Below, in pieces: positions 1 through 10,781 of a stretch of 10,781 bases of DNA. How positions within the stretch are numbered: position 1 is the first letter of the stretch; the number at the start of each line of letters is the position of its first letter. Source of the DNA: a virus. Lineage: Duplodnaviria; Heunggongvirae; Uroviricota; Caudoviricetes. A model generated the notes under the pieces. The model was not told the origin of the DNA. It ran no database searches and saw only the letters and a list, made by a program, of their open reading frames with translations. Made by a program: the position numbers and the translations under genes. The stretch is from positions 1-10,781 of IMG/VR virus record IMGVR_UViG_2778261567_000015; one strand, written 5' to 3'.

Positions 1-282
1 TTACCGCCGTAACCGCTCCGGCTTCTTCCAGTGGTACGTTATTTTTTCTTTCTCCCGATACAGTTCAACGCGGCGATTGTAGGCCAGCATTTCCAGAACG
101 CGGATCCGTATGTTGCGCATATCCACATCATTAAGCTGGATACCATCACGGCGCATCACCTCCGCAACAACACGCACATAATTTTCGGCGGTCACGCTGT
201 CCGGCTGCGTGGCCTGTTCGTCAGCCTGCTGGCTGATTCCGGCAACGCGACGGATTAATCGCAGTAGTTCGGCTTCTGTCAT
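1..282 (-). CDS. hypothetical protein (93 aa)
   Basis: Complete ORF: ATG at 280-282 with a GGGGG stretch just upstream on the minus strand, stop at 1-3. No family recognised. Confidence 0.45.
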   Translation of the reverse strand: MTEAELLRLIRRVAGISQQADEQATQPDSVTAENYVRVVAEVMRRDGIQLNDVDMRNIRIRVLEMLAYNRRVELYREKEKITYHWKKPERLRR

Positions 283-314
283 TGTGCCCCCATCGTTCTG
301 ATAGTCTGGTGTCG

Positions 315-530
315 TCGGGTCCTTCCTGGAATTATGGCCCGTTACGGGGCGGCGACCTCGCGGTTTTTATCTGTTTATGAAAATTTTTCTGGAAAAAGCA
401 TGTCGGCACTTCTCGAACATAACTATTTGTTTTTAAATAGATACACAATAAAAAGAAACGACACGGTAATCATCTGAAATGGCGATTTATGACGCTTTCA
501 TGTCGTTTCTCAGTTTTGTTCAATAATTGC
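315..530 (+). other. lambda-type cos site A (cosQ-like, cosN, long cosB-like region)
   Basis: 12-mer GGGCGGCGACCT at 347-358, preceded by CGGGTCCTTCC...GTTACG and followed by CGCGGTTTTTATCTGTTTATGAAAATTTTTCTGG, which closely matches my recollection of the lambda cohesive end and left-end sequence. Further lambda-like blocks follow (CATAACTATTTGTTTTTAAATAGATAC; inverted AGAAACGACA 454-463 / TGTCGTTTCT 501-510, R-site-like). Confidence 0.7.
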
Positions 531-537
531 GCTGCGG

Positions 538-1080
538 TTACTCGCCTTTCTTCTGTAGCAACTTTTCCGGTACGTCTCCGGTAGTTTCCATCAGGTAATC
601 AGCCAGTATCTTCGGGAGGTTGTCGGCAACTGTGGCACTGGCATTACAGGCTTTAGCCACTTCCTTTTTAAGTCCATCCAGCATGGCGGGGGTCATCTGT
701 GGGAATCCCCTTTGCATAGTAAGCGGGAGGCTGTCCATGATTGAAGAAATCTGGTTCGCCAGCTTTGAAAGCGCGTACAGGCAAAAACCTGTATCAATCA
801 CGTCGCCGCGTTCGCGCTCGTTTTTAAGCTCCTGCGCCTCCGCCTGGGCCGTCAGTAATCGGATTCTTACGCGTAAAAGTTCATCATCGTCGATATCGCC
901 TTTGTCGTTTGTAACCTGGTCAATTGCATTGCTTACCCGATTGTCTATCACGCTGGCAACATCGTAAAAAGCCTCGCGGCCTTTACGTTCAACGGGAGTC
1001 ACTCCCCACTTGTCGAACGCTGTCGCACTTACACGGCAGCTTTGCGCCATAGTTTTTTTGTTCATCAGGTGCGATTTCAT
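538..1080 (-). CDS. phage small terminase subunit, lambda Nu1 family (TerS-like)
   Basis: Translation aligns by eye to lambda Nu1 along most of its length (e.g. LLTAQAEAQELKNERERGDVIDTGFCLYALSKLANQISSIMDSLPLTMQRGFP versus Nu1 RLTRAQADAQELKNARDSAEVVETAFCTFVLSRIAGEIASILDGLPLSVQRRFP). Start is ambiguous: GTG 1092, ATG 1080 (GTGGGGA SD upstream) or ATG 1065 (MNKKT, matching Nu1 MEVNKKQ). Confidence 0.8.
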   Translation of the reverse strand: MKSHLMNKKTMAQSCRVSATAFDKWGVTPVERKGREAFYDVASVIDNRVSNAIDQVTNDKGDIDDDELLRVRIRLLTAQAEAQELKNERERGDVIDTGFCLYALSKLANQISSIMDSLPLTMQRGFPQMTPAMLDGLKKEVAKACNASATVADNLPKILADYLMETTGDVPEKLLQKKGE

Positions 1081-1092
1081 CAATATCCCCAC

Positions 1093-1257
1093 TTAGTTAA
1101 GGTTTCAGGTTGGTGTATTGGTTTTATATTTCCCTTTTTATTCATAAAGATAGAGCAAACAACAAAACCACCACCACCACCCTGAAAAAGCTCATAAATA
1201 GCGAAAAACCGCGAGGTCGCCGCCCCGTAACGGGTCCATATGCCGGAAAGGACCCGT
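1093..1257 (-). other. lambda-type cos site B (cosQ-like and cosN conserved, cosB diverged), oriented toward the TerS-like gene
   Basis: Reverse complement of 1201-1257 is a near-identical copy of 315-371 (ACGGGTCCTTTCCGG...GTTACGGGGCGGCGACCTCGCGGTTTTTCGC). cosN 12-mer is the complement of 1214-1225. Lambda-like sequence continues about 25 bp (CGCTATTTATGA), then becomes unique, including an (ACC)5 run at 1167-1182. Confidence 0.7.
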
Positions 1258-1280
1258 AAAAAAAGCCGGATTTCTCCGGC
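1258..1280 (-). terminator. intrinsic terminator (minus strand)
   Basis: Hairpin GCCGGA-TTTC-TCCGGC (1265-1280) followed on the minus strand by a U-run (A-run 1258-1264 on plus). Lies downstream of the decoration-protein gene. Confidence 0.5.
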
Positions 1281-1401
1281 CTGTCTCAGATAGTTTTCAG
1301 TATGCGATCGATGTCGCCGTCATCGCCTGGGTTTCTGCTTTAAATTTACTCGCCAGCGGTAGCGCCATGATGCTTTCATTCGTTGCCATCGTTCCCCCTG
1401 C

Positions 1402-1737
1402 TTATCGCGCCAGCGGCTGAACGGATACGCCAGAACCCGCAAAGGCGGCGCATTTTTTCGCGTCAGTGTCGACGCTCTCAGGCCAGTTTACGGCGGCGAT
1501 ATTAAATATCCCCGTCTTGTAACACTGTGCTGATTTCTGCTTTGACGTGTCCACAGGGTACGAGGTCAGATAAACAGCCTTGCCAGATTCCTGACCATCC
1601 CACGGCTTAAACTCGCCATTGTCCGCCAGCATCAGCGGGGTAAATTCCTGAATGACGCCAGCATCAGCGGCAAAATGTACCAGCGTCGTGGATACCTGCT
1701 GACTGCCTGCAAATAACTCAATGTATGGAGTGTTCAT
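1402..1737 (-). CDS. head decoration protein, lambda gpD-like (111 aa)
   Basis: Same length as gpD and shared blocks TPLMLAD, WDG, and GIFNIAAVNWPES...KKCAAFAGSGVSV versus gpD GTFRYEDVLWPEA...KKRTAFAGTAISIV. GGGGGA SD before the ATG at 1737. Confidence 0.75.
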   Translation of the reverse strand: MNTPYIELFAGSQQVSTTLVHFAADAGVIQEFTPLMLADNGEFKPWDGQESGKAVYLTSYPVDTSKQKSAQCYKTGIFNIAAVNWPESVDTDAKKCAAFAGSGVSVQPLAR

Positions 1738-1748
1738 AGAATCCCCCG

Positions 1749-2804
1749 TTAACCAATTTTGACGGTAACAAATTTGCGAATATCTGCTGGTACCGGCTGC
1801 GGTGCGCTGTGCGTCTGAACGTACTCAATCGCCGGATCGCCGTCTTCAATCCAGTTTTTCGGGTAGTACATGTTTTGCGTTGCACCAGTTCTTACCGCTT
1901 CCTGATCCATAATCGCGCCATAGGCCACCAGCCCTTTATTGTTGGTGTTGCCCAGGACCAGCAAATCAGGCTCAAGGAAATATTTTTCGGTACCGTCGCT
2001 GTCAGTGTATTTGCCGGAATAGACGATAAGGGCCAGATCTCCCAGATAGCCTTTAAAGCTCACCACTTCGCCCAGGTTTTTACAGGCCAGTTCGGCGGCG
2101 GATTCTGAACCACGGGAAAGATCGTACAGCTCACGGAATTTTTTAAAGCTGCGTAACGTGCGCCATACCTCAGCGCCCATAATCATGACGTTGGCGGGGC
2201 AACCTGCCTGATCTGCGTATAGTTCGATGTCATAGATTGGATCGTAAATATCTTTATCATGCTCGGACCATTTTTTACCCTTGGCCTGCTCTATGATGCA
2301 GTTTTCCGGTATTTTCCAGTCGATTTCATAGCGTTCTATGCCTTCGCCCTCAATGATGTTTTTTCCGGTCGTGACCGCATTTACAGCCAGCCATTCAACA
2401 CGCGCTTTAATGGCGTTTATCTGGCGGCGCATGTTGCCAGTAATCAGGCGCATACGGCGGTAGGTAGGGTCGTTAAGCAGTGCCGGATCTTCTCCAGCCA
2501 TGCGCATTATCGTTTTTAATGGATCGATTTCGTGCTTTGGCTTCATGTAGCCTGGTTTAATCGTGCTGGTTTCGTACCCTTTATCGCGCTGAACCTGGCT
2601 ACCCACCACAGGCGAACAAAACGCCGATATAGTGACTTCTTCAATGTCCAGGTTATCAAGCATGATGTTCTGGGTGCTGAATGTCGCCACGTTCGGGAAA
2701 AACAGTGTGGTAAACAGCGGACTGAATTTATATTCCGCAATATCCCCGCGATTCAGGTACGTGAAAAGCTGATTAGTTGTAAGTGCTGTTGCTTTTACTG
2801 TCAT
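1749..2804 (-). CDS. major capsid protein, lambda gpE family (351 aa)
   Basis: Multiple long blocks match lambda gpE from memory: KFSPLFTTLFF/KFDPLFLRLFF, KPGYMKPKHEIDP/TPGYVKPKHEVNP, DPTYRRMRLITGNMR/DPAYRRRRIIMQNMR, WSEHDKDIYDP/WSKRDKSTYDP, FKGYLGDLALIVYSGKY/YKGMYGDVAIVVYSGQY, YPKNWIEDGDPA/YPKNWVTTGDPA. GGGGGTG SD; start overlaps the upstream stop (TAATG). Confidence 0.9.
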   Translation of the reverse strand: MTVKATALTTNQLFTYLNRGDIAEYKFSPLFTTLFFPNVATFSTQNIMLDNLDIEEVTISAFCSPVVGSQVQRDKGYETSTIKPGYMKPKHEIDPLKTIMRMAGEDPALLNDPTYRRMRLITGNMRRQINAIKARVEWLAVNAVTTGKNIIEGEGIERYEIDWKIPENCIIEQAKGKKWSEHDKDIYDPIYDIELYADQAGCPANVMIMGAEVWRTLRSFKKFRELYDLSRGSESAAELACKNLGEVVSFKGYLGDLALIVYSGKYTDSDGTEKYFLEPDLLVLGNTNNKGLVAYGAIMDQEAVRTGATQNMYYPKNWIEDGDPAIEYVQTHSAPQPVPADIRKFVTVKIG

Positions 2805-3010
2805 TATTCACCCCCGTGAACCTGATTCATACCCAGCGCCGCGCGTAAATAGGCGCGTACCTGCCAGCCTGTTGACGGCTCAACCATCGCCAGCGGATCA
2901 AGTCCTGCCGCAATGCCTGCTTTTACGTTCTGCTGGTGGCGTTCCTTGAGCGCCTTCACGATGTCGGGGCTTATGTACACCGAAACACCGCCTTTTTTCT
3001 CTTCAGCCAT
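2804..3010 (-). CDS. hypothetical protein (68 aa), first gene of the morphogenesis operon
   Basis: ATG at 3008-3010 with AGAGGA SD; stop overlaps the capsid ATG (translational coupling). No family recognised. Confidence 0.5.
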   Translation of the reverse strand: MAEEKKGGVSVYISPDIVKALKERHQQNVKAGIAAGLDPLAMVEPSTGWQVRAYLRAALGMNQVHGGE

Positions 3011-3045
3011 AGTAAGAAATTCCTCTTTGACTTAAAAAATCATAA

Positions 3046-3094
3046 CTGGATGTTCATCCAGCTCTGATTATAATCAGGATTGCATTTTGTGCAA
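3046..3094 (-). promoter_or_regulatory. candidate sigma70 promoter of the morphogenesis operon with a perfect palindrome at the start of the leader
   Basis: Minus strand reads TTGCAC (complement of 3089-3094), 16 bp spacer, TATAAT (complement of 3067-3072). Perfect 7-2-7 palindrome CTGGATG-TT-CATCCAG at 3046-3061 sits between promoter and SD. Confidence 0.4.
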
Positions 3095-3174
3095 TGATGT
3101 TGAGTTGTGTTGCAAATTATGAAATGATTATCCCGATCATGTGTGCCAGCGCACCAAAAAACCTCATATGCAAA

Positions 3175-3241
3175 AGCCCGATAAGCCCCCTCTGACCTTA
3201 TCGGGCTTTTTTTGGGTACAAAAAAGCCGGATTTCTCCGGC
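3175..3241. terminator. tandem intrinsic terminators separating replication and morphogenesis modules
   Basis: Hairpin GCCCGATAAG...CTTATCGGGC (3175-3205) followed by a T-run (3206-3212). Second hairpin GCCGGA-TTTC-TCCGGC (3226-3241) with a flanking A-run, acting on the minus strand just after the stop at 3249. Confidence 0.55.
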
Positions 3242-3248
3242 TGTGTGA

Positions 3249-3521
3249 TTAGCTGTCTGGGTAATTACGCCATATTTCATCGCTTACACCATCTATACCC
3301 ATTTCAGCATAAGTGCGATCGACTGCCTTTCTCAGGTCTCCGAAGTTATCCGGCGGCTCCGGTGGCTTCTGTGCCTTCCTGGAACATTCCAGCCGTCGCA
3401 TCGTAACCTGATGCCGTTCCTTGTCTGTCTCCACCAGCTGCATGACTTCACCCCATCGCGCCGCCGCCCTCCGGTAAAATCCTTTCGCCTCGAGTTCCTC
3501 CGCTATGCGGTCATGTACCAT
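3249..3521 (-). CDS. PerC-like small transcriptional regulator (about 90 aa)
   Basis: ATG at 3519-3521 directly after the SSB stop with GGGGTGAGG SD. Motif MVHDRIAEELEAKGFYRRAAARW resembles the PerC family as I recall it. The longer track ORF (to 3641) overlaps SSB and is not favoured. Confidence 0.55.
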   Translation of the reverse strand: MVHDRIAEELEAKGFYRRAAARWGEVMQLVETDKERHQVTMRRLECSRKAQKPPEPPDNFGDLRKAVDRTYAEMGIDGVSDEIWRNYPDS

Positions 3522-3531
3522 CCTCACCCCC

Positions 3532-3942
3532 TCAGAACGGAATACCATCACCGTAAGGGTCATCGCCTCCCGCTGGTGGCTGATTACCCTGTGTGCCTGT
3601 GGTTTTGCGTCTGTTCCCGCCAGGACGTGCCGCGCGGGCACTGATTACGCTGTCTGCGATAACCTGCCAGCCCTGCCGCGTTTCGCCGTTCTGGCCTGTC
3701 CACTGGCTTACCTGCATCGTGCCGGATACGCTGGCAACATCGCCTTTTTGATGTTTAGCCAGGAAATCGGCCTGTTTGCCAAATGCGATGACCGATAACC
3801 ATAACGTCGCCTGTCCGTCCTGTGCCTGGCTGCATGGCAAAGATACCGCCATACGCGCCAGCGTCATCGGTGTGCCCTTGCTGGTCTGTTTTACCTGCGG
3901 GTCGTCCACCAGCCGCCCGTAAGCGGCTATCTGTGCCGTCAT
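3532..3942 (-). CDS. ssb: single-stranded DNA-binding protein (SSB)
   Basis: OB-fold-like N-terminal pattern (YGRLVDDPQV...WLSVIAFGKQADFLAKHQKGDVASVSGTMQVSQWTGQNGE), Gly/Pro/Gln-rich linker and acidic C-terminal tail DDPYGDGIPF, comparable to the DDDIPF tail of bacterial SSB. Confidence 0.8.
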   Translation of the reverse strand: MTAQIAAYGRLVDDPQVKQTSKGTPMTLARMAVSLPCSQAQDGQATLWLSVIAFGKQADFLAKHQKGDVASVSGTMQVSQWTGQNGETRQGWQVIADSVISARAARPGGNRRKTTGTQGNQPPAGGDDPYGDGIPF

Positions 3943-4208
3943 AATTCCACCTCTCCGGTTTTAACGTTGATGGTTGTTACCTGTTCCGCTTCGGCAATCT
4001 CCCGTTCTGTCAGCGTGGCAAAGTTTGCCGCCGCTGTGGTCATGAATGCGCTTATCAGTTCGGGATGTTCCTTCGCGTATCCTTCCCGCGTGTGGCGGTC
4101 TATCGTTCTGATTGCCACCTTTAAGGCGTGCTCTGTCATGTCTAACGCTTTATATTTTGGCGCTGTTCTGTCTCTGCGCATTTTGGTTATCTCCTCACTC
4201 ATGCTCAC
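3939..4208 (-). CDS. hypothetical protein (about 87-89 aa)
   Basis: ORF coupled to the ssb start (overlap). GTG at 4208 or ATG at 4202, with GTGAGG upstream. No family recognised. Confidence 0.45.
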   Translation of the reverse strand: MSMSEEITKMRRDRTAPKYKALDMTEHALKVAIRTIDRHTREGYAKEHPELISAFMTTAAANFATLTEREIAEAEQVTTINVKTGEVEL

Positions 4209-4395
4209 TTTTACGCCTCACTTTTTAAAGCGTCTCGCTTCGTCTCACTTGAGATTTTTGTGTTTTGTATGTGCATGTTTCATAAGTATTTTTTTACTCC
4301 TCACTTTTGAGCATGTATACAGGTGAGAAAGTGAGTAATCGTGTTAATATTTTGTAAAAACCTCACCATTACTCACTTTTGCTACTCACTTTTTA
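4193..4395. repeat. iteron-like array, candidate replication origin
   Basis: At least 7 direct copies of (C)TCACTTTT (e.g. 4203-4213, 4216-4227, 4296-4308, 4371-4380, 4384-4395) plus inverted GTGAG copies (4323-4335) in AT-rich DNA immediately 3' of the replication ATPase gene. Confidence 0.5.
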
Positions 4396-5790
4396 CAGTG
4401 GTCCTACATCATCACCATCAATGTAAATCACGGCGTCTTTTTCCAGTTTGGCTAACCATCGCCGCATATTTTTCACGTCATACCCAAGCCGTTTCATGTC
4501 ATCACGTAACAGCGGGATCGTGCACTTGTCGCCGTTCTGTGTACGTGAACGGATGCACCCCCATAGCGCGGTATGGTTTTCCGTCTTGTTGCCTGCCTCC
4601 TCGATGCGCTCCAGTTCAACGGGAGGGCGCGGCTTATCCACCACCACCAGCGACGTGATTAACTCCCCGTCAGCGTCGGTAAAAAGCTCCACCACCCGCA
4701 AATCATAGGCAGCCTCTTTGAGTTCCTCCGCGTCCTTCATTTTGGTGCATGAGATAACCAGCGCTTCGCTTCCTGCGTCCTCCCTGCGTATCCGGTATTC
4801 AGCATCCAGCGAAGCACGAAATGCACTGGAACCGCGCGCGCCTTTCGTCTCATCCTTGCCGGAATGGTGAACCACCAGCACCGTGGCCCCTGTGCGCCGT
4901 TTCAGTTCGTCACAACCACGGATAAACGCCCCCATATCACGGGAATCATTTTCATCATTGCCACCAAAGCACCGCGCCAGCGTATCCAGAATAATCATGC
5001 GTACAGGTTTACCCGTTTCCCGCTCCACCTGACGGGCAGCGATAACCAGTTCATCAACATCAAGCGGGACAGCCGGAAAGACCGGACGGTTTACCAGATA
5101 CAGATTTTTCACCTGCTCCCCGTGTACAACCTCCCACGCTCTCACGCGACGCGGTACACCAATACCGCCTTCACCAACCACATAGAGAACAGCGCCATGT
5201 GCAACCCTGCGGCCTCCCCACTGGCGGCCCGTGGAAACGTGACACGCCCACGAACCCGCAAGGAATGATTTATAGGAACCGCTTGCCCCGTATATGCTGC
5301 ATAGCGACGATGCCGGAATAATCCCCTTTACCACGTAATCTAATTGCGTGTCGTATCCGGCAGATCCAACGCTCATCGGTAGCGTGGTTTTTCGCTGGTG
5401 GCTCAGGCTTTCCCCGCGTTCCCATGTCTCCCTAAGCCGTGGAAGCTGGTCGCTCCATTCCTCCAGCAATTCGAAATTTTCAGAAAACAGGCGCGCTTCC
5501 TGGACTCCTGCGATTGCCAGTTTCGTGGCGATGGTTAACAACTGCACTTCGTCAATATTTCCGGCACGTATCACTTTCGCCCTGAACCGACCTTTATCAA
5601 CAATCTGCAAGTTATCCAGTTCGCTTAACTGATAACGCCCCAGGTAAACGGGAGGGACTGGATCGCCTGCTTTTTTGGCCTGTGCAATGATGTAGTGCTC
5701 TGCAAATGAGTGAGCATTATCACCCGCAAAAATAACCGCTTCGGTGTGTTTATCTTTCGGTAACAGTTTTACATTCGGTGCCAGTTTCAT
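4393..5790 (-). CDS. replication ATPase / helicase, RepA-DnaB-type RecA fold (465 aa)
   Basis: Walker A-like GASGSYKS, Walker B-like RMIILDT, VLVVHHSGK motif typical of RepA-like helicases; C-terminal basic domain. Start overlaps the upstream ORF stop (ATGA). Confidence 0.8.
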   Translation of the reverse strand: MKLAPNVKLLPKDKHTEAVIFAGDNAHSFAEHYIIAQAKKAGDPVPPVYLGRYQLSELDNLQIVDKGRFRAKVIRAGNIDEVQLLTIATKLAIAGVQEARLFSENFELLEEWSDQLPRLRETWERGESLSHQRKTTLPMSVGSAGYDTQLDYVVKGIIPASSLCSIYGASGSYKSFLAGSWACHVSTGRQWGGRRVAHGAVLYVVGEGGIGVPRRVRAWEVVHGEQVKNLYLVNRPVFPAVPLDVDELVIAARQVERETGKPVRMIILDTLARCFGGNDENDSRDMGAFIRGCDELKRRTGATVLVVHHSGKDETKGARGSSAFRASLDAEYRIRREDAGSEALVISCTKMKDAEELKEAAYDLRVVELFTDADGELITSLVVVDKPRPPVELERIEEAGNKTENHTALWGCIRSRTQNGDKCTIPLLRDDMKRLGYDVKNMRRWLAKLEKDAVIYIDGDDVGPL

Positions 5791-6086
5791 TTTTTACCCC
5801 TGAATCCGTTAATCATGGTTTTCAGCTTCTGGATGTTTGCCCGTGCTCTGGCGTTGCTGGTGGGCACGTTATGCGGCGCGGTCTGTACCAGAGAAAAATC
5901 ACGCCGGAACTGATAAACAGGCATCACGCAATCATATTCGTAACCTTCACGGCGGTAAGTTACGCACCGTCCCGCCACGCCCTTAATCATTACCGTGCCG
6001 CCGTACTGGTCGCGGTAAATATCACCGCGCGTAAATTTAGGGTGAGTGTTGCCACTGGCAGTTAAGCCAGAATATTTAAGTTTCAT
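5787..6086 (-). CDS. hypothetical protein (99 aa), coupled to the replication ATPase
   Basis: Complete ORF; 4-nt overlap with the downstream ATPase start. No family recognised. Confidence 0.5.
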   Translation of the reverse strand: MKLKYSGLTASGNTHPKFTRGDIYRDQYGGTVMIKGVAGRCVTYRREGYEYDCVMPVYQFRRDFSLVQTAPHNVPTSNARARANIQKLKTMINGFRGKK

Positions 6087-6091
6087 TATTT

Positions 6092-6325
6092 TTATTCTCC
6101 GGTGTGCTGTTCTTTATATCTGTCGTGCAATAGATCTATTTCTTGCAGTTCCATTATTACAGGCTCAAGAAGCGTTATTAATGCCGTGGCAATTCTTGAT
6201 TTTTGTTTGTCGCGTTCATTGTCGCCAAGTGTTTCAAGCCATATGCGCAATATTTCCAGCATGTTTTCACTGTGAGAAAGTGCAAGAAATGCGCGGTATA
6301 TTGTTTCGTGGTAAATATCACGCAT
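6092..6325 (-). CDS. hypothetical small acidic protein (77 aa)
   Basis: ORF in a tightly packed co-directional operon; start 2 nt after the upstream stop; Glu/Asp-rich. Confidence 0.5.
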   Translation of the reverse strand: MRDIYHETIYRAFLALSHSENMLEILRIWLETLGDNERDKQKSRIATALITLLEPVIMELQEIDLLHDRYKEQHTGE

Positions 6326-6326
6326 A

Positions 6327-6548
6327 TTAATCCCCGTCCGTCGTTTTTCTTAAAATAACCTCTGTCACGAAATCAGCATAATCGGCGGCGATATTCAGTA
6401 CATCAAGCCCCGTTGATTTATATTCTCTCGTGGAAAGTAAGAAAAAAGCCGCTCTAATAAGTTCTGGCATTGACGAAAGCGCATCAGCCGCATCATCAGG
6501 AACGCCGGAAAATTCCTGTTTCAGGGAATTAAAACGATCATCACGCAT
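6327..6548 (-). CDS. hypothetical small acidic protein (73 aa)
   Basis: Start chosen at ATG 6546-6548 (MRDD...), with GGGGTGGG upstream and just before the upstream gene's stop. The track's longer start at 6596 overlaps the upstream gene. Confidence 0.45.
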   Translation of the reverse strand: MRDDRFNSLKQEFSGVPDDAADALSSMPELIRAAFFLLSTREYKSTGLDVLNIAADYADFVTEVILRKTTDGD

Positions 6549-6762
6549 AACCCACCCCATTTTCACAATCAGCAACAAGAATATTTTTAGCGTCATTCAG
6601 CGACCGCGTGGCGGTGTATCGGATACATTCCAGGGCGAACTGTGTCCGGTCTTTCTGTTCTTCTCCCTGCGCAAGCTCTGCCGTGCATTCAATATCAATA
6701 AGCGCGTGCATCAGCGTAGTGAGTGCGGCGGCGGCTGCGTCCGGTGTGGTTTTATTGCACAT
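6541..6762 (-). CDS. hypothetical small acidic protein (73 aa)
   Basis: Start chosen at ATG 6760-6762 (MCNKTT...), preceded by GGAGGGG SD and overlapping the upstream stop. Confidence 0.45.
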   Translation of the reverse strand: MCNKTTPDAAAAALTTLMHALIDIECTAELAQGEEQKDRTQFALECIRYTATRSLNDAKNILVADCENGVGYA

Positions 6763-6983
6763 GTACCCCTCCGCATTTTTTTTCGTTAGAAATAAGCGTT
6801 CTTCTTTCCTGTTCATCGCTCAGGAATACGCAGACCTCACCGCTAAGGCGTTTAAGTAAGCCGATGATTGCCCCTGATTCGCTGTCGGTCATCATGCCAG
6901 GGTAATCCTCTGCCAGTGCGCAAATAACTTCGATTTGGTGGGCGCGTTCTGCTGCCTGTTGTAGCGTGATTTCCTGGCTCATA
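6752..6983 (-). CDS. hypothetical small acidic protein (76 aa)
   Basis: Start at ATG 6981-6983 overlapping the stop of the Icd-like gene (ATGA); ends at the TAA at 6752-6754. Confidence 0.5.
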
Positions 6984-7146
6984 AGCCTACCCCCTGACGA
7001 ATACGGGCGACAAAAATAAGATGTGCGTGCGGCAGCTGGGCGCGGGCTTCGCGTTCTGTTGCTGCCGTGACGGTAAAGAGTGAGGTTTGTTTTTCCTGGC
7101 ACTGCATAAAGCGCCAGACAAAGTAAGGGCGTGCGGATACAGCCAT
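6979..7146 (-). CDS. Icd-like small protein, paralog 2 (55 aa)
   Basis: ATG at 7144-7146 with AGGAGCC SD. Paralogous to 7433..7630 (FVWRF...TEREAR...FVARIRQG). Family name 'host cell division inhibitor Icd-like' is from memory. The track ORF extending to 7482 is treated as a non-functional extension. Confidence 0.5.
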   Translation of the reverse strand: MAVSARPYFVWRFMQCQEKQTSLFTVTAATEREARAQLPHAHLIFVARIRQGVGL

Positions 7147-7149
7147 GTG

Positions 7150-7432
7150 AAAGGCTCCTGTAGTGAAATTAAGGAGTCTCGCTACTACGCTGCTAAACGG
7201 GGTGGCGAGACGTAACAGGGTTAGCAGACTGGCACTACAGGAACCAGCGAGCGCAAAGGCTCCCCCGTTACGCCCCGCCATAATGCGGGTATGGGTAGGT
7301 TTACGGACACAAAAAAACCGCATATCGGAATGTAAGCGGCTGTCCGCTGTAGTATTCAGGCTGCTAAACCCGGTCGCCATGTGGGCGATGGGTGAAGCAT
7401 ACAGCCCCGTGATAATTTTTTGCAAGCGGTTT
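7150..7432 (-). other. structured spacer between the Icd-like paralogs; candidate riboregulatory leader
   Basis: Open in both strands with no convincing protein. Contains two direct GCTGCTAAAC copies (7189-7198, 7360-7369) and the complementary GGGTTAGCAGAC (7218-7229); inverted CCTGTAGTG/CACTACAGG (7158-7166 / 7233-7241) overlapping the SD of the 7146 gene; weak hairpin plus 7-nt U-run on the minus strand at 7311-7339. Confidence 0.3.
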
Positions 7433-7630
7433 TTACGCATGATGTGACCCCTGACGAATACGGGCGGCAAATACAGCAACACAACCGGACGGGCAACGGT
7501 TACGCGCTTCGCGTTCCGTCCAGGCGGTTACGTGGATTATTTGAGATTCTCCGGCACTCAGTGCCAGAAAACGCCACACAAAGGCCGTTTGTGTGTGTAC
7601 AAGGTGTGGTATATGATTTACAGCAACCAT
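7433..7630 (-). CDS. Icd-like small protein, paralog 1 (65 aa)
   Basis: ATG at 7628-7630 with AGGAGCC SD; motif FVWRFLAL...TAWTEREARNR...FAARIRQG. First gene downstream of the minus-strand promoter at 7732-7761. Confidence 0.55.
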   Translation of the reverse strand: MVAVNHIPHLVHTQTAFVWRFLALSAGESQIIHVTAWTEREARNRCPSGCVAVFAARIRQGSHHA

Positions 7631-7700
7631 AACGGCTCCTAGTTTACGTTGTTGGTTAGAAGCCCCGTATGTGTTCCAGCACTGCGGGGTTTCGTCTTTT
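7585..7700. repeat. copy 1 of a ~115-bp duplicated unit (5' leader plus first codons of the Icd-like gene)
   Basis: Shares with 8330-8447 the blocks CGTTTGTGTGTGTA, CCATAA, TGGTTAGAAGCCC and a GC hairpin followed by a T-run (7663-7700), in the same order and spacing. Confidence 0.6.
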
Positions 7701-7719
7701 CTGTACCTTGCATCAACAA

Positions 7720-7802
7720 GGTGTAAGACACAATGTAAAATAACGGTGTCTTACACGTCAACCCTTCAAAATATTTTTTTTTCGTGTATATTGTCTTACA
7801 CC
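7720..7802. promoter_or_regulatory. divergent promoter pair with inverted-repeat operator
   Basis: Inverted repeat GGTGTAAGACAC (7720-7731) / GGTGTCTTACAC (7745-7756) and a third half-site TGTCTTACACC (7792-7802). Minus-strand promoter TTGACG (complement of 7756-7761) and TACATT (complement of 7732-7737). Plus-strand promoter TTCAAA (7765-7770), 16 bp, TATATT (7787-7792). Confidence 0.45.
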
Positions 7803-7822
7803 AAAAACATGAGGGGTTAAAC

Positions 7823-8002
7823 ATGGCAACGGGTCCAAAGAATGCAAAATCACAATCTGTAACTGCACGTATTGCCCATGAAATTATTGAAGGCATGGAG
7901 AACGTGAAAGAAGAAGGTGAAAGCACGGGGCAGTTTATAAACGCAGCCATGCGCGGCGAAATCAAACGCCGCCAGCGTCGCAAGGCCAAAGAATCAGAAT
8001 AA
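7823..8002 (+). CDS. ribbon-helix-helix (CopG/Arc/MetJ-type) DNA-binding protein (59 aa)
   Basis: ATG at 7823 with GAGGGG SD. Predicted beta-strand QSVTARI followed by two helices (AHEIIEGMENVKEEG, STGQFINAAMRGEI) and a basic tail. The track's GTG start at 7784 lies inside the promoter and is not favoured. Confidence 0.55.
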   Translation: MATGPKNAKSQSVTARIAHEIIEGMENVKEEGESTGQFINAAMRGEIKRRQRRKAKESE

Positions 8003-8059
8003 TCACTATCAGCGCCGTGGTGTGAGGTACTACGGCGCATTGCTTTACAGGGCAGTACC

Positions 8060-8287
8060 ATGACCAACAACACACTATCACCAATACAAGACACGCAAAC
8101 GCAAGATGATGAAATCATCCGGCAAAGGCAGTCAGAAGCCTGCGCCAGACTTGAGGAAGAACTAACCAGAACAAAAATACCACCACCAGCGCCGCGCTTA
8201 GTGCCACCAGAAAAATTTGCCCTTGAAGATTTTGTCGATAAATACCCACGGCGGCTTAAATCCGGCAAAAACCGACCGCCAGGATGA
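8060..8287 (+). CDS. hypothetical protein (75 aa), acidic N-terminus, Pro-rich centre, basic C-terminus
   Basis: ORF downstream of the RHH gene on the same strand. Weak SD (AGGG 12 nt upstream). Followed by hairpin GAAACGGA-TTAT-TCCGTTTC (8308-8327). No family recognised. Confidence 0.4.
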   Translation: MTNNTLSPIQDTQTQDDEIIRQRQSEACARLEEELTRTKIPPPAPRLVPPEKFALEDFVDKYPRRLKSGKNRPPG

Positions 8288-8329
8288 GTGCACAAAACCG
8301 AACTCTGAAACGGATTATTCCGTTTCCGG

Positions 8330-8447
8330 GGCGTTTGTGTGTGTATAAAGAGTAAGCTATGCTCTTTTATAGCCATAATCTTTACCTCAATTAATGGTTT
8401 GGTTAGAAGCCCGTTGGTGTTCATAGCGCCAGCGGGCTTTGCTTTTT
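8330..8447. repeat. copy 2 of the duplicated leader unit, carrying a remnant Icd-like start
   Basis: Same block order as 7585-7700. Minus-strand ATG at 8374-8376 with SD GAGGTA encodes MAIKEHSLLFIHTQT (compare MVAVNHIPHLVHTQTA) and then loses the Icd-like sequence. GC hairpin 8409-8437 plus T-run 8438-8447. Confidence 0.55.
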
Positions 8448-8506
8448 GTGTTGATTGTGTGTAATGTGTCACTACACATAAATACATTACATGAGGTGTA
8501 ATTAAC

Positions 8507-8686
8507 GTGTCAACACACAAAAACGAAAGGCGTGGTAATCCTCCGTTCCAGTTCCGTTTAGATCCTGACTTACGGGAAAAGATGGAAAAGGCACAACAAC
8601 ATGACGGCGATGATTCTCTTGCTGCCTGGATAAAGCGAATAATCCGCAAAGAATTACAGCAACGCGGCATAGAACCCAAAGGGTAA
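8507..8686 (+). CDS. Arc/Mnt-type ribbon-helix-helix repressor (59 aa, GTG start)
   Basis: GTG at 8507 with GAGGTG SD 8 nt upstream; stop TAA at 8684-8686. PPFQFRLDPDLREKMEKAQQ...SLAAWIKRIIRKEL resembles P22 Arc (PQFNLRWPREVLDLVRKVAEE) and Mnt (PHFNFRMPMEVREKLKFRAE). Absent from the ORF track because it is under 60 aa. Confidence 0.55.
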   Translation: MSTHKNERRGNPPFQFRLDPDLREKMEKAQQHDGDDSLAAWIKRIIRKELQQRGIEPKG

Positions 8687-8836
8687 TTACATTGCCCACC
8701 AGCCTGATAGCGGCTATCATTCCCGTGCTTATGTTTGGGATCACATACACATAAGGCGCAGCAGGTTAATTGTTCACAAGGGCGTTCCGGCAACGGGGCG
8801 CTTTTTGTTATGTTCATCGTGTTATGCCTCACACCA

Positions 8837-9043
8837 TTACGCAGCCGTTCCGCGTGCTTCCTGCTCACGTTCTTTCATCCATGCGATTACGTCTTCCTCA
8901 TACCATCCGCGACGGCGTAAACCAACGCGAAAACCCTGCGGAAATTCTCCGGCGTTGATCATGCTTTGAAGCGTGCTGTCTGCCTTGATGTAGATAAGTT
9001 TTTTTACTTCCTGGCGAAAGATGACTTTTTTGATTGCTTCCAT
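8837..9043 (-). CDS. alpA: AlpA-family phage transcriptional regulator (68 aa)
   Basis: ADSTLQSMINAGEFPQGFRVGLRRRGWYEEDVIAWMKERE fits the AlpA/Vis MerR-like HTH pattern (...GxFPKPxKLGxRxxxWxxxEVxxW). Position next to the integrase is typical. Confidence 0.75.
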   Translation of the reverse strand: MEAIKKVIFRQEVKKLIYIKADSTLQSMINAGEFPQGFRVGLRRRGWYEEDVIAWMKEREQEARGTAA

Positions 9044-9060
9044 CGTGATTTACCTTGTGA

Positions 9061-9151
9061 ATCCGGTGTATTCCGGTGACAAATACGGTAAATCATCGGA
9101 TACGGGTAAAAACAGTTCCCACCGTTTTTAAACTGTTAGAACCGTTTTTTA
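9061..9151. promoter_or_regulatory. repeat-rich region upstream of alpA (candidate operator sites)
   Basis: Direct repeats TCCGGTG (9062-9068, 9072-9078), TACGG(G)TAAA (9084-9092, 9101-9110) and ACCGTTTTT (9121-9129, 9141-9149), the last pair forming an inverted arrangement with GGTAAAAAC. Confidence 0.35.
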
Positions 9152-9176
9152 TGTTGGTGATTTGAAAGGGATTTAT

Positions 9177-9198
9177 AAAAAAAGCGGCATTTCTGCCG
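9177..9198 (-). terminator. intrinsic terminator (minus strand)
   Basis: Hairpin GCGGCA-TTTC-TGCCGC (9183-9198) followed on the minus strand by U6 (A-run 9177-9182 on plus), directly after the stop at 9211. Confidence 0.5.
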
Positions 9199-9210
9199 CT
9201 TTGAGGATTG

Positions 9211-9462
9211 TTACCGCCATTTTTTTGGCCTGCCTCCGGTCTTCATGGTTGCCGGACGAACTACCCTGTCGATACTTTCAGCCATATTCCTGGATGCCCC
9301 ACGGGATACCAGGAAATCTACTACCTGTTTTTTTGATGGGGCCGTCGTTCTGTCCTCCGGATCGTAGGTTGACCAAAATTCATGCTGAACCATCAGGGCC
9401 AGTTGCAGCCCGTCGCAATTGCATCTGAAATTTTTTTGCATCTTAACGGTTTCATGTTTCAC
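9211..9462 (-). CDS. hypothetical protein (up to 83 aa), doubtful
   Basis: ORF between int and alpA ending just before a terminator, but GTG start with weak SD and no recognisable family. Confidence 0.3.
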   Translation of the reverse strand: MKHETVKMQKNFRCNCDGLQLALMVQHEFWSTYDPEDRTTAPSKKQVVDFLVSRGASRNMAESIDRVVRPATMKTGGRPKKWR

Positions 9463-9539
9463 GGCCTTGTCGTTAAATTTGATGCAATTATACGACGGTT
9501 TTACATGGTTTTCGTAGTTTTTACTGGTTTTCTGTACAG

Positions 9540-10781
9540 CTAAACGGCTCGGATACCCCTTTTACCACTGGCGAGGGTTACGCCCGTCGCCGCAGCCTCG
9601 ACAAATTCGCCCCACCAGCGCATAAGCACCACGCGTTTTTCTATGTAGTTGCTCCGGTTGTATGCCCGTCTCACTTCGTTAGTGTCGACGTGGGCAAGTG
9701 CGGCCTCGATTACGTCCGGCTCGAATCCTTCCTCGTTCGCTGCTGTACTGAATATGGCGCGTAATCCATGAGACACCAGCACGCCAGCGAACCCCATGCG
9801 TCGTAATGCTGCGTTTGCTGTCTGGCTGTTCATTGGCTGCCGTGGGTCTTTCAGACTCGGGAAAACATAATCGCGGTGGTGGCTGATTGGTTTCATGGCC
9901 TCCAGCACCGCCATAGCCTGACCGGAAAGTGGGATAACGTGATCCCTGCGCATCTTCATGCGTCCGGCGGGTATCGTCCAGCGTTGCGCGTCCAGGTCGA
10001 TTTCATCCTACCGCGTTGATGACGCTTCGGCGGGACGGGTTACGGTCAGTAACTGCCATTCAATCAGTAATCTGGTCTGCCGTTCTGTTGCCGATACTGA
10101 TAAAGCCTGCATAAGCTCCGGCAACTGTTCGGGGCGGATTGTTGGCATATGTTTTTTTACAGGGGAGGGGAACGCCTTACGCACATTCATAGCCGGATTG
10201 GCATCAATCAGCCCACTGTTGGCGGCGTAATCCATTACCTCATTAACGCGCTGTAAAACCCGTTTGAGTGTTTCCAGGTTGCCGCGCTCCTTGATGGGGG
10301 TAAGCACCTCAACGAACCTGCGAGCGGTCAGGGTGTCTATTGGGGTGTTGCCGATGAACGGGAATACATATTTATCCAGCGATCGCCAGATGTCTTTAAT
10401 CGTGTTGGGGGCCAGATTCTGGCTGATTTTCACCTGGTACCATGCCGCCGCCACATTTTCGAACGTGTTCCCTTGTCTTCGGGCCTCTGCCTCTCGTTTT
10501 TTCTTCTCATGGCCCTGCGGGTCAGTTCCGGCACTGATTAACGCTCTGTACTCGCTACGGCGTTTTCTGGCATCAGCCAGGGAAACATCATCAAGCGATC
10601 CAAAACTCAGCAATATTCTTTTTTTGTCCGATGGCCGGTAGTAGGAAAATCGCCAGAGTTTTGATCCGGACGGTTTGACCAGGAGAAAAAGCCCTCCGCC
10701 GTCCTGTAGGGTGTATTCCTTTTCCGCTGGTCTGGCTGCTTTGATCTGCACCGTGGTTAATGGGGGTGTTTTTCTCGCCAT
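9540..10781 (-). pseudogene. int: P4-type tyrosine integrase interrupted by a single in-frame TAG
   Basis: N-terminal ORF 10011-10781 (GGGLFLLVKPSGSKLWRFSYY...) and C-terminal ORF 9540-9959 (HGLRAIF, RRAYNRSNY) are in the same frame, separated only by TAG (complement of 10008-10010). Read-through gives ...SSTR*DEIDLDAQRWTIPAGRMK..., where related integrases usually have Trp, consistent with TGG to TAG. Start codon is at the window edge. Confidence 0.75.

Follow-up and report, generated by a model that had tools for sequence, protein, structure and literature searches.

A nonsense mutation in the integrase gene of an EcCICFT073-type PICI that probably immobilizes the island in a few Escherichia coli isolates

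Can a mobile element still move when a single in-frame stop codon interrupts its integrase gene, and is such a codon really there? Both questions are raised by a 10,781-nucleotide stretch of viral DNA (hereafter, the window), which corresponds to positions 1 to 10,781 of the IMG/VR record IMGVR_UViG_2778261567_000015. A sequence-only reading had pointed out that two integrase open reading frames (ORFs) at one end of the window share a frame and are separated only by TAG, at what it took to be a conserved tryptophan position, and had proposed that the island is probably unable to excise or integrate unless the stop is suppressed or is a sequencing error. Here we follow the codon through its relatives, its effect on the protein, the assemblies that carry it and the island in which it lies.

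One amber codon splits the integrase gene

The integrase gene of the island, now a pseudogene, spans 413 codons on the minus strand (positions 9540–10781), as defined by translation, Pfam matches and comparison with WP_000101909.1. Read from 10781 to 9540, its frame contains one internal stop and no other defect. That stop is codon 258, an amber TAG given by the complement of positions 10008–10010, and in translation it falls between LLTVTRPAEASSTR, which ends in PAEASSTR, and DEIDLDAQRWTIPAGRMKMRRDH. The list of ORFs shows two pieces on the minus strand: one that encodes a truncated product of 257 amino acids (10008–10781), and an orphaned C-terminal ORF of 139 amino acids that starts at Met275 (9540–9959). 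Both are in one frame, and the 16 codons from the stop to Met275 are all open. The sequence-only reading was therefore correct in its coordinates, its peptide context and its count of a single stop in a shared frame.

When the stop is read as tryptophan, the protein is matched end to end by the three domains of its family: Arm-DNA-bind_3 (PF13356, residues 8–94, E = 5e-23), Phage_int_M (PF22022, residues 107–203, E = 5e-25) and Phage_integrase (PF00589, residues 215–379, E = 8e-30). The N-terminal domains also match the solved CP4-like integrase domains 3ju0 and 2kkv.

The TAG allele is rare and derived

We searched 5,426 complete E. coli genomes with the integrase gene by megablast, and 438 of them carry it. 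The best match, WP_000101909.1 of E. coli JNEC-KY174, differs at 1 base of 1242, namely window position 10009, where the plus strand has T and the relatives have C. On the coding strand this is a G-to-A transition that turns TGG (Trp) into TAG. Because intact alleles lie one nucleotide away, the amber reading is unambiguous, even though a single SNP offers no test against chance. The C-to-T change might have arisen at a Dcm (CCWGG) hotspot, but the local coding-strand sequence, GGTGGGAT, ruled this out.

Nineteen other loci that carry part of int were fetched. Setting aside the three TAG-bearing assemblies described below and one locus that stops short of the codon, there are 15 relatives in which the fetched sequence includes the site, and codon 258 is TGG in every one (15/15). 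In L001, L007, L008, L009, L011 and L016, this codon is the sole difference in int over the part covered, which is the whole gene in L001 and L011. Conservation extends well beyond these close relatives: in an alignment of 33 cluster representatives with 56–96% identity (from Escherichia, Salmonella, Klebsiella, Pectobacterium, Dickeya, Serratia, Providencia and others), the W258 column is invariant (33/33). The description of the site as a conserved tryptophan, with TGG in the nearest allele, is thus borne out, and the comparison with orthologous integrases that had been suggested as a check returned TGG in all relatives that cover the site. The residue aligned with W258 in the distant recombinase XerA is valine, indicating that the tryptophan is a trait of this integrase family and not of all tyrosine recombinases.

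Integrases of 412–413 amino acids are also present in 20 of the 20 island relatives listed through the 93-amino-acid and small-terminase (TerS) proteins (the two lists share some assemblies). Contigs that encode the exact protein with W258 number at least 1,000, and those with the truncated version 4, from which we conclude that TAG is a rare derived allele in a small clone. An exact 34-mer pattern around the codon, with R at the variable base, had no match in genome_contigs; the GTDB species representatives are without the TAG allele.

The truncated product would lack most of the active site

All six residues of the R-K-H-R-H-Y set are encoded in frame across the integrase gene (all codons on the minus strand). 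The catalytic Arg249 (codon 10037–10035) is invariant in the alignment and falls opposite the arginine in the LRVSE motif of XerA. The residues Lys276 (codon 9956–9954), His338 (9770–9768), Arg341 (9761–9759), His364 (9692–9690) and Tyr374 (9662–9660), all encoded in the orphaned ORF, are each invariant in the 33 homologues. A sequence search of the PDB with the catalytic domain gave a weak match to XerA of Pyrococcus (4a8e; E = 0.0016), which anchors the HxxR motif (His338 and Arg341) and His III (His364), and not the tyrosine. From its invariance and position, and from what is known of the family, we take Tyr374 (in RAYNR) to be the nucleophile.

The stop at codon 258 lies nine residues past R249 and ahead of the five other catalytic residues (K276, H338, R341, H364 and Y374), so that TAG parts R249 from the rest and no uninterrupted frame yields the whole active site. 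What is retained in the 257-amino-acid product is the arm-DNA-binding domain, the core-binding domain and about 45 residues at the start of the catalytic domain, Arg249 among them; precomputed Pfam results for the called truncated gene list Arm-DNA-bind_3 and Phage_int_M only. As predicted from its sequence, this product is without an active site and would be unable to cleave or rejoin DNA, because Lys276, His338, Arg341, His364 and the presumed nucleophile Tyr374 are missing. The orphaned Met275 ORF, for its part, is without the arm-binding domain, the core-binding domain and Arg I, and upstream of its ATG there is just a weak GGA. By descent the gene belongs to the P4/CP4-57-type tyrosine integrases, but it is a pseudogene.

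The host element is an EcCICFT073-type PICI

Nearly all genes of the island lie on the minus strand. From the integrase end, the order begins with int, a 76-amino-acid ORF and an alpA-like regulator, then two small divergent genes, a C4 antisense RNA accompanied by Icd-like ORFs, and DUF4222; next are the RepA/AAA_25 helicase, SSB and PerC, and at the far end are the capsid protein (gpE-like), the decoration protein (gpD-like), the small terminase (Nu1-like) and the 93-amino-acid protein. The AlpA-like excisionase or transcriptional regulator (8837–9043, minus strand) looks intact; it matches phrog_66 and phrog_2790 (E = 5e-7), and its homologue is annotated as an HTH regulator in RefSeq. The replication protein, a RepA-family AAA_25 helicase of 465 amino acids (4393–5790, minus strand), is intact, with the same called length in L007, L013 and L017. 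All genes are intact, too, in the packaging and capsid-hijack module (538–2804, minus strand; Pfam Phage_cap_E, HDPD and Phage_Nu1; PHROGs 29, 49 and 57), which comprises the lambda gpE-like major capsid protein (1749–2804, minus strand), the gpD-like decoration protein (1402–1737, minus strand) and the Nu1-like TerS (538–1080, minus strand). No portal, large terminase (TerL), tail or lysis gene was called in the window. The presence of capsid and TerS genes without portal or TerL suggests that the island hijacks the capsid and packaging of a lambdoid cos helper.

The integrase lies at one end, most genes point in one direction, an alpA-type regulator adjoins int, and the island encodes its own means of replication together with packaging or capsid-interference functions, but not a complete set of virion genes. 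By gene content, the element is an EcCICFT073-type phage-inducible chromosomal island (PICI), a kind of phage satellite; judged by the relative L017, it would measure approximately 11.4 kb. Its closest whole-island relative (L007/L017, GCA_050597055.1) shows 5 mismatches over window positions 1–7008 and has the same called gene lengths there; around 870 bp of the regulatory region of the window (7009–7876) are missing from L007. Apart from int, the genes of the island (alpA, C4 RNA/icd-like, rep, ssb, perC, capsid, decoration and terS) look intact, as if decay had not begun.

Several other features of the island deserve mention in their own right. The C4 antisense RNA (7198–7285, minus strand; Rfam RF01695, 72 bits, full length) sits inside a called ORF (6979–7482, minus strand) with an Icd-like C-terminus, and a second Icd-like ORF (7433–7630, minus strand) lies just upstream of it; together, RNA and ORFs look like a P1/P4-type c4–icd immunity cassette inside a PICI. 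An open frame of 409 codons (7639–8868, minus strand), with a Cys/Ser-rich translation unlike a protein, crosses the divergent regulatory region and overlaps the plus-strand genes at 7784–8002 (phrog_949) and 8060–8287. Gene callers report it as a 392-amino-acid protein with no Pfam match, and at the corresponding position L013/L024 and L026 have called ORFs of 461 and 371 amino acids, respectively. The frame is probably spurious, but it is unusual for 1.2 kb to run without a stop codon. The 309-bp gap that separates the decoration gene from terS (1093–1401) is without the 137-amino-acid gene that many relatives have there (L003, L008, L010, L012 and L019–L021). That gene is also missing from L007, L013 and L016, and its absence here therefore looks like a polymorphism for the presence of the gene, not like decay of this one island. 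In JNEC-KY174, whose int allele is one base apart, the island cargo differs (a ClpP-like protease/capsid fusion and a primase); this pairing of a near-identical int with other cargo shows modular exchange behind one integrase.

The island sits at the 3′ end of a tRNA gene

The source contig places the island after the tRNA-Pro(GGG) gene proL, downstream of yejM. The insertion is at the 3′ end of proL, between yejM and yejO. Comparing L017 with the empty K-12 site, in which both flanks are joined, revealed an imperfect direct repeat, with CTCTCGTGCCGACCAAA at the 3′ end of proL and CTCTCGTGGACCAAA approximately 870 bp past the last gene; the element between these repeats measures about 11.4 kb in L017. 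Both att sites lie outside the window. The attL at the proL 3′ end (L004 9768–9785, approximately 230 nt past window end 10781) is intact in the source contig, and the attR defined by the K-12 comparison is at L017 11953–11967. Copies of attR vary among relatives by small indels (CTCTCGTGGACCAAA, CTCTCGTGCCAAA and CTCTCGTGCAAA).

An exact k-mer search had brought up a 25-bp repeat of the TTTTAGTTATACG type as a candidate att core, which we rejected, because the empty K-12 site puts the crossover at the tRNA 3′ end. Just upstream of int, between attL and the int start (L004 9913–9975), AGTTATACG occurs in two direct and two inverted copies, and a 25-bp near-copy, TTTTAGTTATACGTTTGGTTATACG, is found near the other end of the element, approximately 790 nt beyond window position 1 in L007. 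With the crossover placed in the tRNA 3′ end, the AGTTATACG repeats are more likely to be protein-binding sites inside the element, candidate arm-type sites for Int or for AlpA.

Weighing an error, a leaky stop and mobilization in trans

The TAG could be an artefact of sequencing or assembly, in which case the true base would be G, the codon TGG and the integrase intact. The window is identical to NJZF01000001.1 of the E. coli assembly GCA_002460155.1 (0 mismatches in 10,774 nt), and the exact 257-amino-acid protein is encoded on seven contigs of public collections, including GCA_002515785.1 and the Logan assembly of SRR4340482. TAG is read in all three of these loci. It is true that this single base makes up the whole difference from common intact alleles, that the prefixes NJZF and NJTH suggest a single submission batch for both GenBank assemblies, and that a systematic base-calling error would be possible had all seven contigs come from one sequencing batch. 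However, the two GenBank assemblies have unlike contigs (307 kb and 92 kb), and between the source and GCA_002515785.1 there is a single SNP in 14,752 nt, which lies in the chromosomal flank, within a gene called with Pfam NA37 (yejK in the RefSeq annotation of the same region). Because the contig structures differ and there is this one SNP, at least two read sets must be involved. The Logan assembly, moreover, was built separately from raw reads, and a consensus substitution is uncommon at normal coverage in a context that is neither repetitive nor homopolymeric. As TAG recurs in separate assemblies, a random consensus error is unlikely, and we regard an error of any kind as extremely improbable; the exception that the sequence-only reading had made for a sequencing error has lost most of its force now that the codon is seen in two GenBank assemblies and in one assembled from raw reads.

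If the stop is real, the island might nonetheless still move. A suppressor tRNA or basal read-through of UAG could supply enough Int, and the codon could even serve to throttle mobility. Integrases work in few copies, and E. coli has both amber suppressors and a low level of UAG read-through; the lack of a second lesion in int would fit continued selection, but would fit recency just as well. Against a leaky stop, the codon is not conserved, with TGG in 15 of the 15 relatives that cover the site and W in all 33 homologues, and the TAG allele is on 4–7 contigs as opposed to at least 1,000 for the Trp allele. No tRNA is found in the window, in which an Rfam scan at gathering thresholds detected the C4 RNA only, far from the amber site. 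Amber suppressors of the usual kinds, like near-cognate tRNAs, insert Gln, Tyr, Lys or Ser and would place another residue at the invariant Trp; strong suppressors are, in addition, rare in natural isolates. Nothing points to programmed read-through, and we consider suppression very unlikely. Alternatively, the gene could be dead and the island mobilized in trans by a closely related integrase of another satellite in the same genome, or moved unexcised by a helper phage through generalized or lateral transduction. Related islands with this type of integrase often occur several per E. coli genome (int at up to 3 places, and parts of the window at up to 11), and attL is intact in the source contig. 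Yet an integrase of the same att specificity would normally occupy the proL site, which is already filled, and paralogues elsewhere imply the use of different sites, as for the 97.7% identical one in strain S19-651, which adjoins a partial isocitrate-dehydrogenase fragment. Strain CFT073, which has other prophages and islands, still lost detectable transfer on int knock-out. We give mobilization by such routes only a slim chance.

Discussion

The reading that we very much prefer, and hold to be highly probable, is a very recent nonsense mutation in a PICI integrase, carried by a few near-identical E. coli isolates, with the island probably immobilized as a result. That the event is very recent is indicated by an int without a second lesion and by other genes that look intact. 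The sequences show a G-to-A transition at Trp258 that changed TGG to TAG in the int of the PICI; on this reading, translation would halt after residue 257, with the DNA-binding domains and Arg249 kept and the other catalytic residues lost; and the island would no longer be able to excise, circularize or integrate by itself and would be fixed in the chromosome. In EcCICFT073, int inactivation “abolished detectable excision and transfer” (PMC6092414), and by analogy with that deletion the island described here is most likely immobilized. The proposal that it is probably unable to excise or integrate thus gains support by inference, both from this knock-out and from the loss of five of the six catalytic residues.

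The resemblance to EcCICFT073-type PICIs (Fillol-Salom et al. 2018, PMC6092414) extends to a terminal int with an alpA-like neighbour, a rep module, PerC, a terS packaging module and transcription mostly in one direction, and probably also to a dedicated attachment site and the size of about 11.4 kb measured in L017. The window matches the island of Nissle 1917 and its relatives with 94% identity over 66% of the window length. Unlike those elements, the island has a premature amber codon in its integrase, and its replication protein is a RepA/AAA_25 helicase, whereas many relatives have a D5_N/DUF5906 primase. With the IntA-like integrases of P4 and CP4-57 it shares three domains, R-K-H-R-H-Y in frame and an element in the 3′ end of a tRNA gene, but the frame is broken at codon 258 and the encoded protein is without the active site. 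A functional parallel is the EcCICFT073 int knock-out, in which the integrase is lost and the island is otherwise intact; that mutant was engineered, whereas the allele in the window arose naturally. The SatelliteFinder study lists gene loss or pseudogenization as one possible reason for a missing core component in a detected satellite (PMC10085698). The nonsense codon is the only departure from the known type, and it is an ordinary, well-explained feature.

We also entertain, as a very faint prospect, that the amber allele keeps the island conditionally mobile by rare UAG read-through, or that the 257-amino-acid fragment, with its arm-binding and core-binding domains, still occupies att DNA and so locks in place an island of use to its host, PerC-type regulation and phage interference being two conceivable uses. 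If this were true, the clone would have taken a first step in domesticating a satellite.

A recent nonsense mutation, our preferred reading, has a small wider significance and opens no unresolved question. It does carry a warning for annotation, in that gene callers split the integrase into products of 257 and 137 amino acids and automated satellite finders may misjudge the element. The allele could also serve as a natural int-null control in assays of excision and transfer. For the biology of these islands, it would represent a clean natural case of a satellite immobilized by one base change, before further decay.
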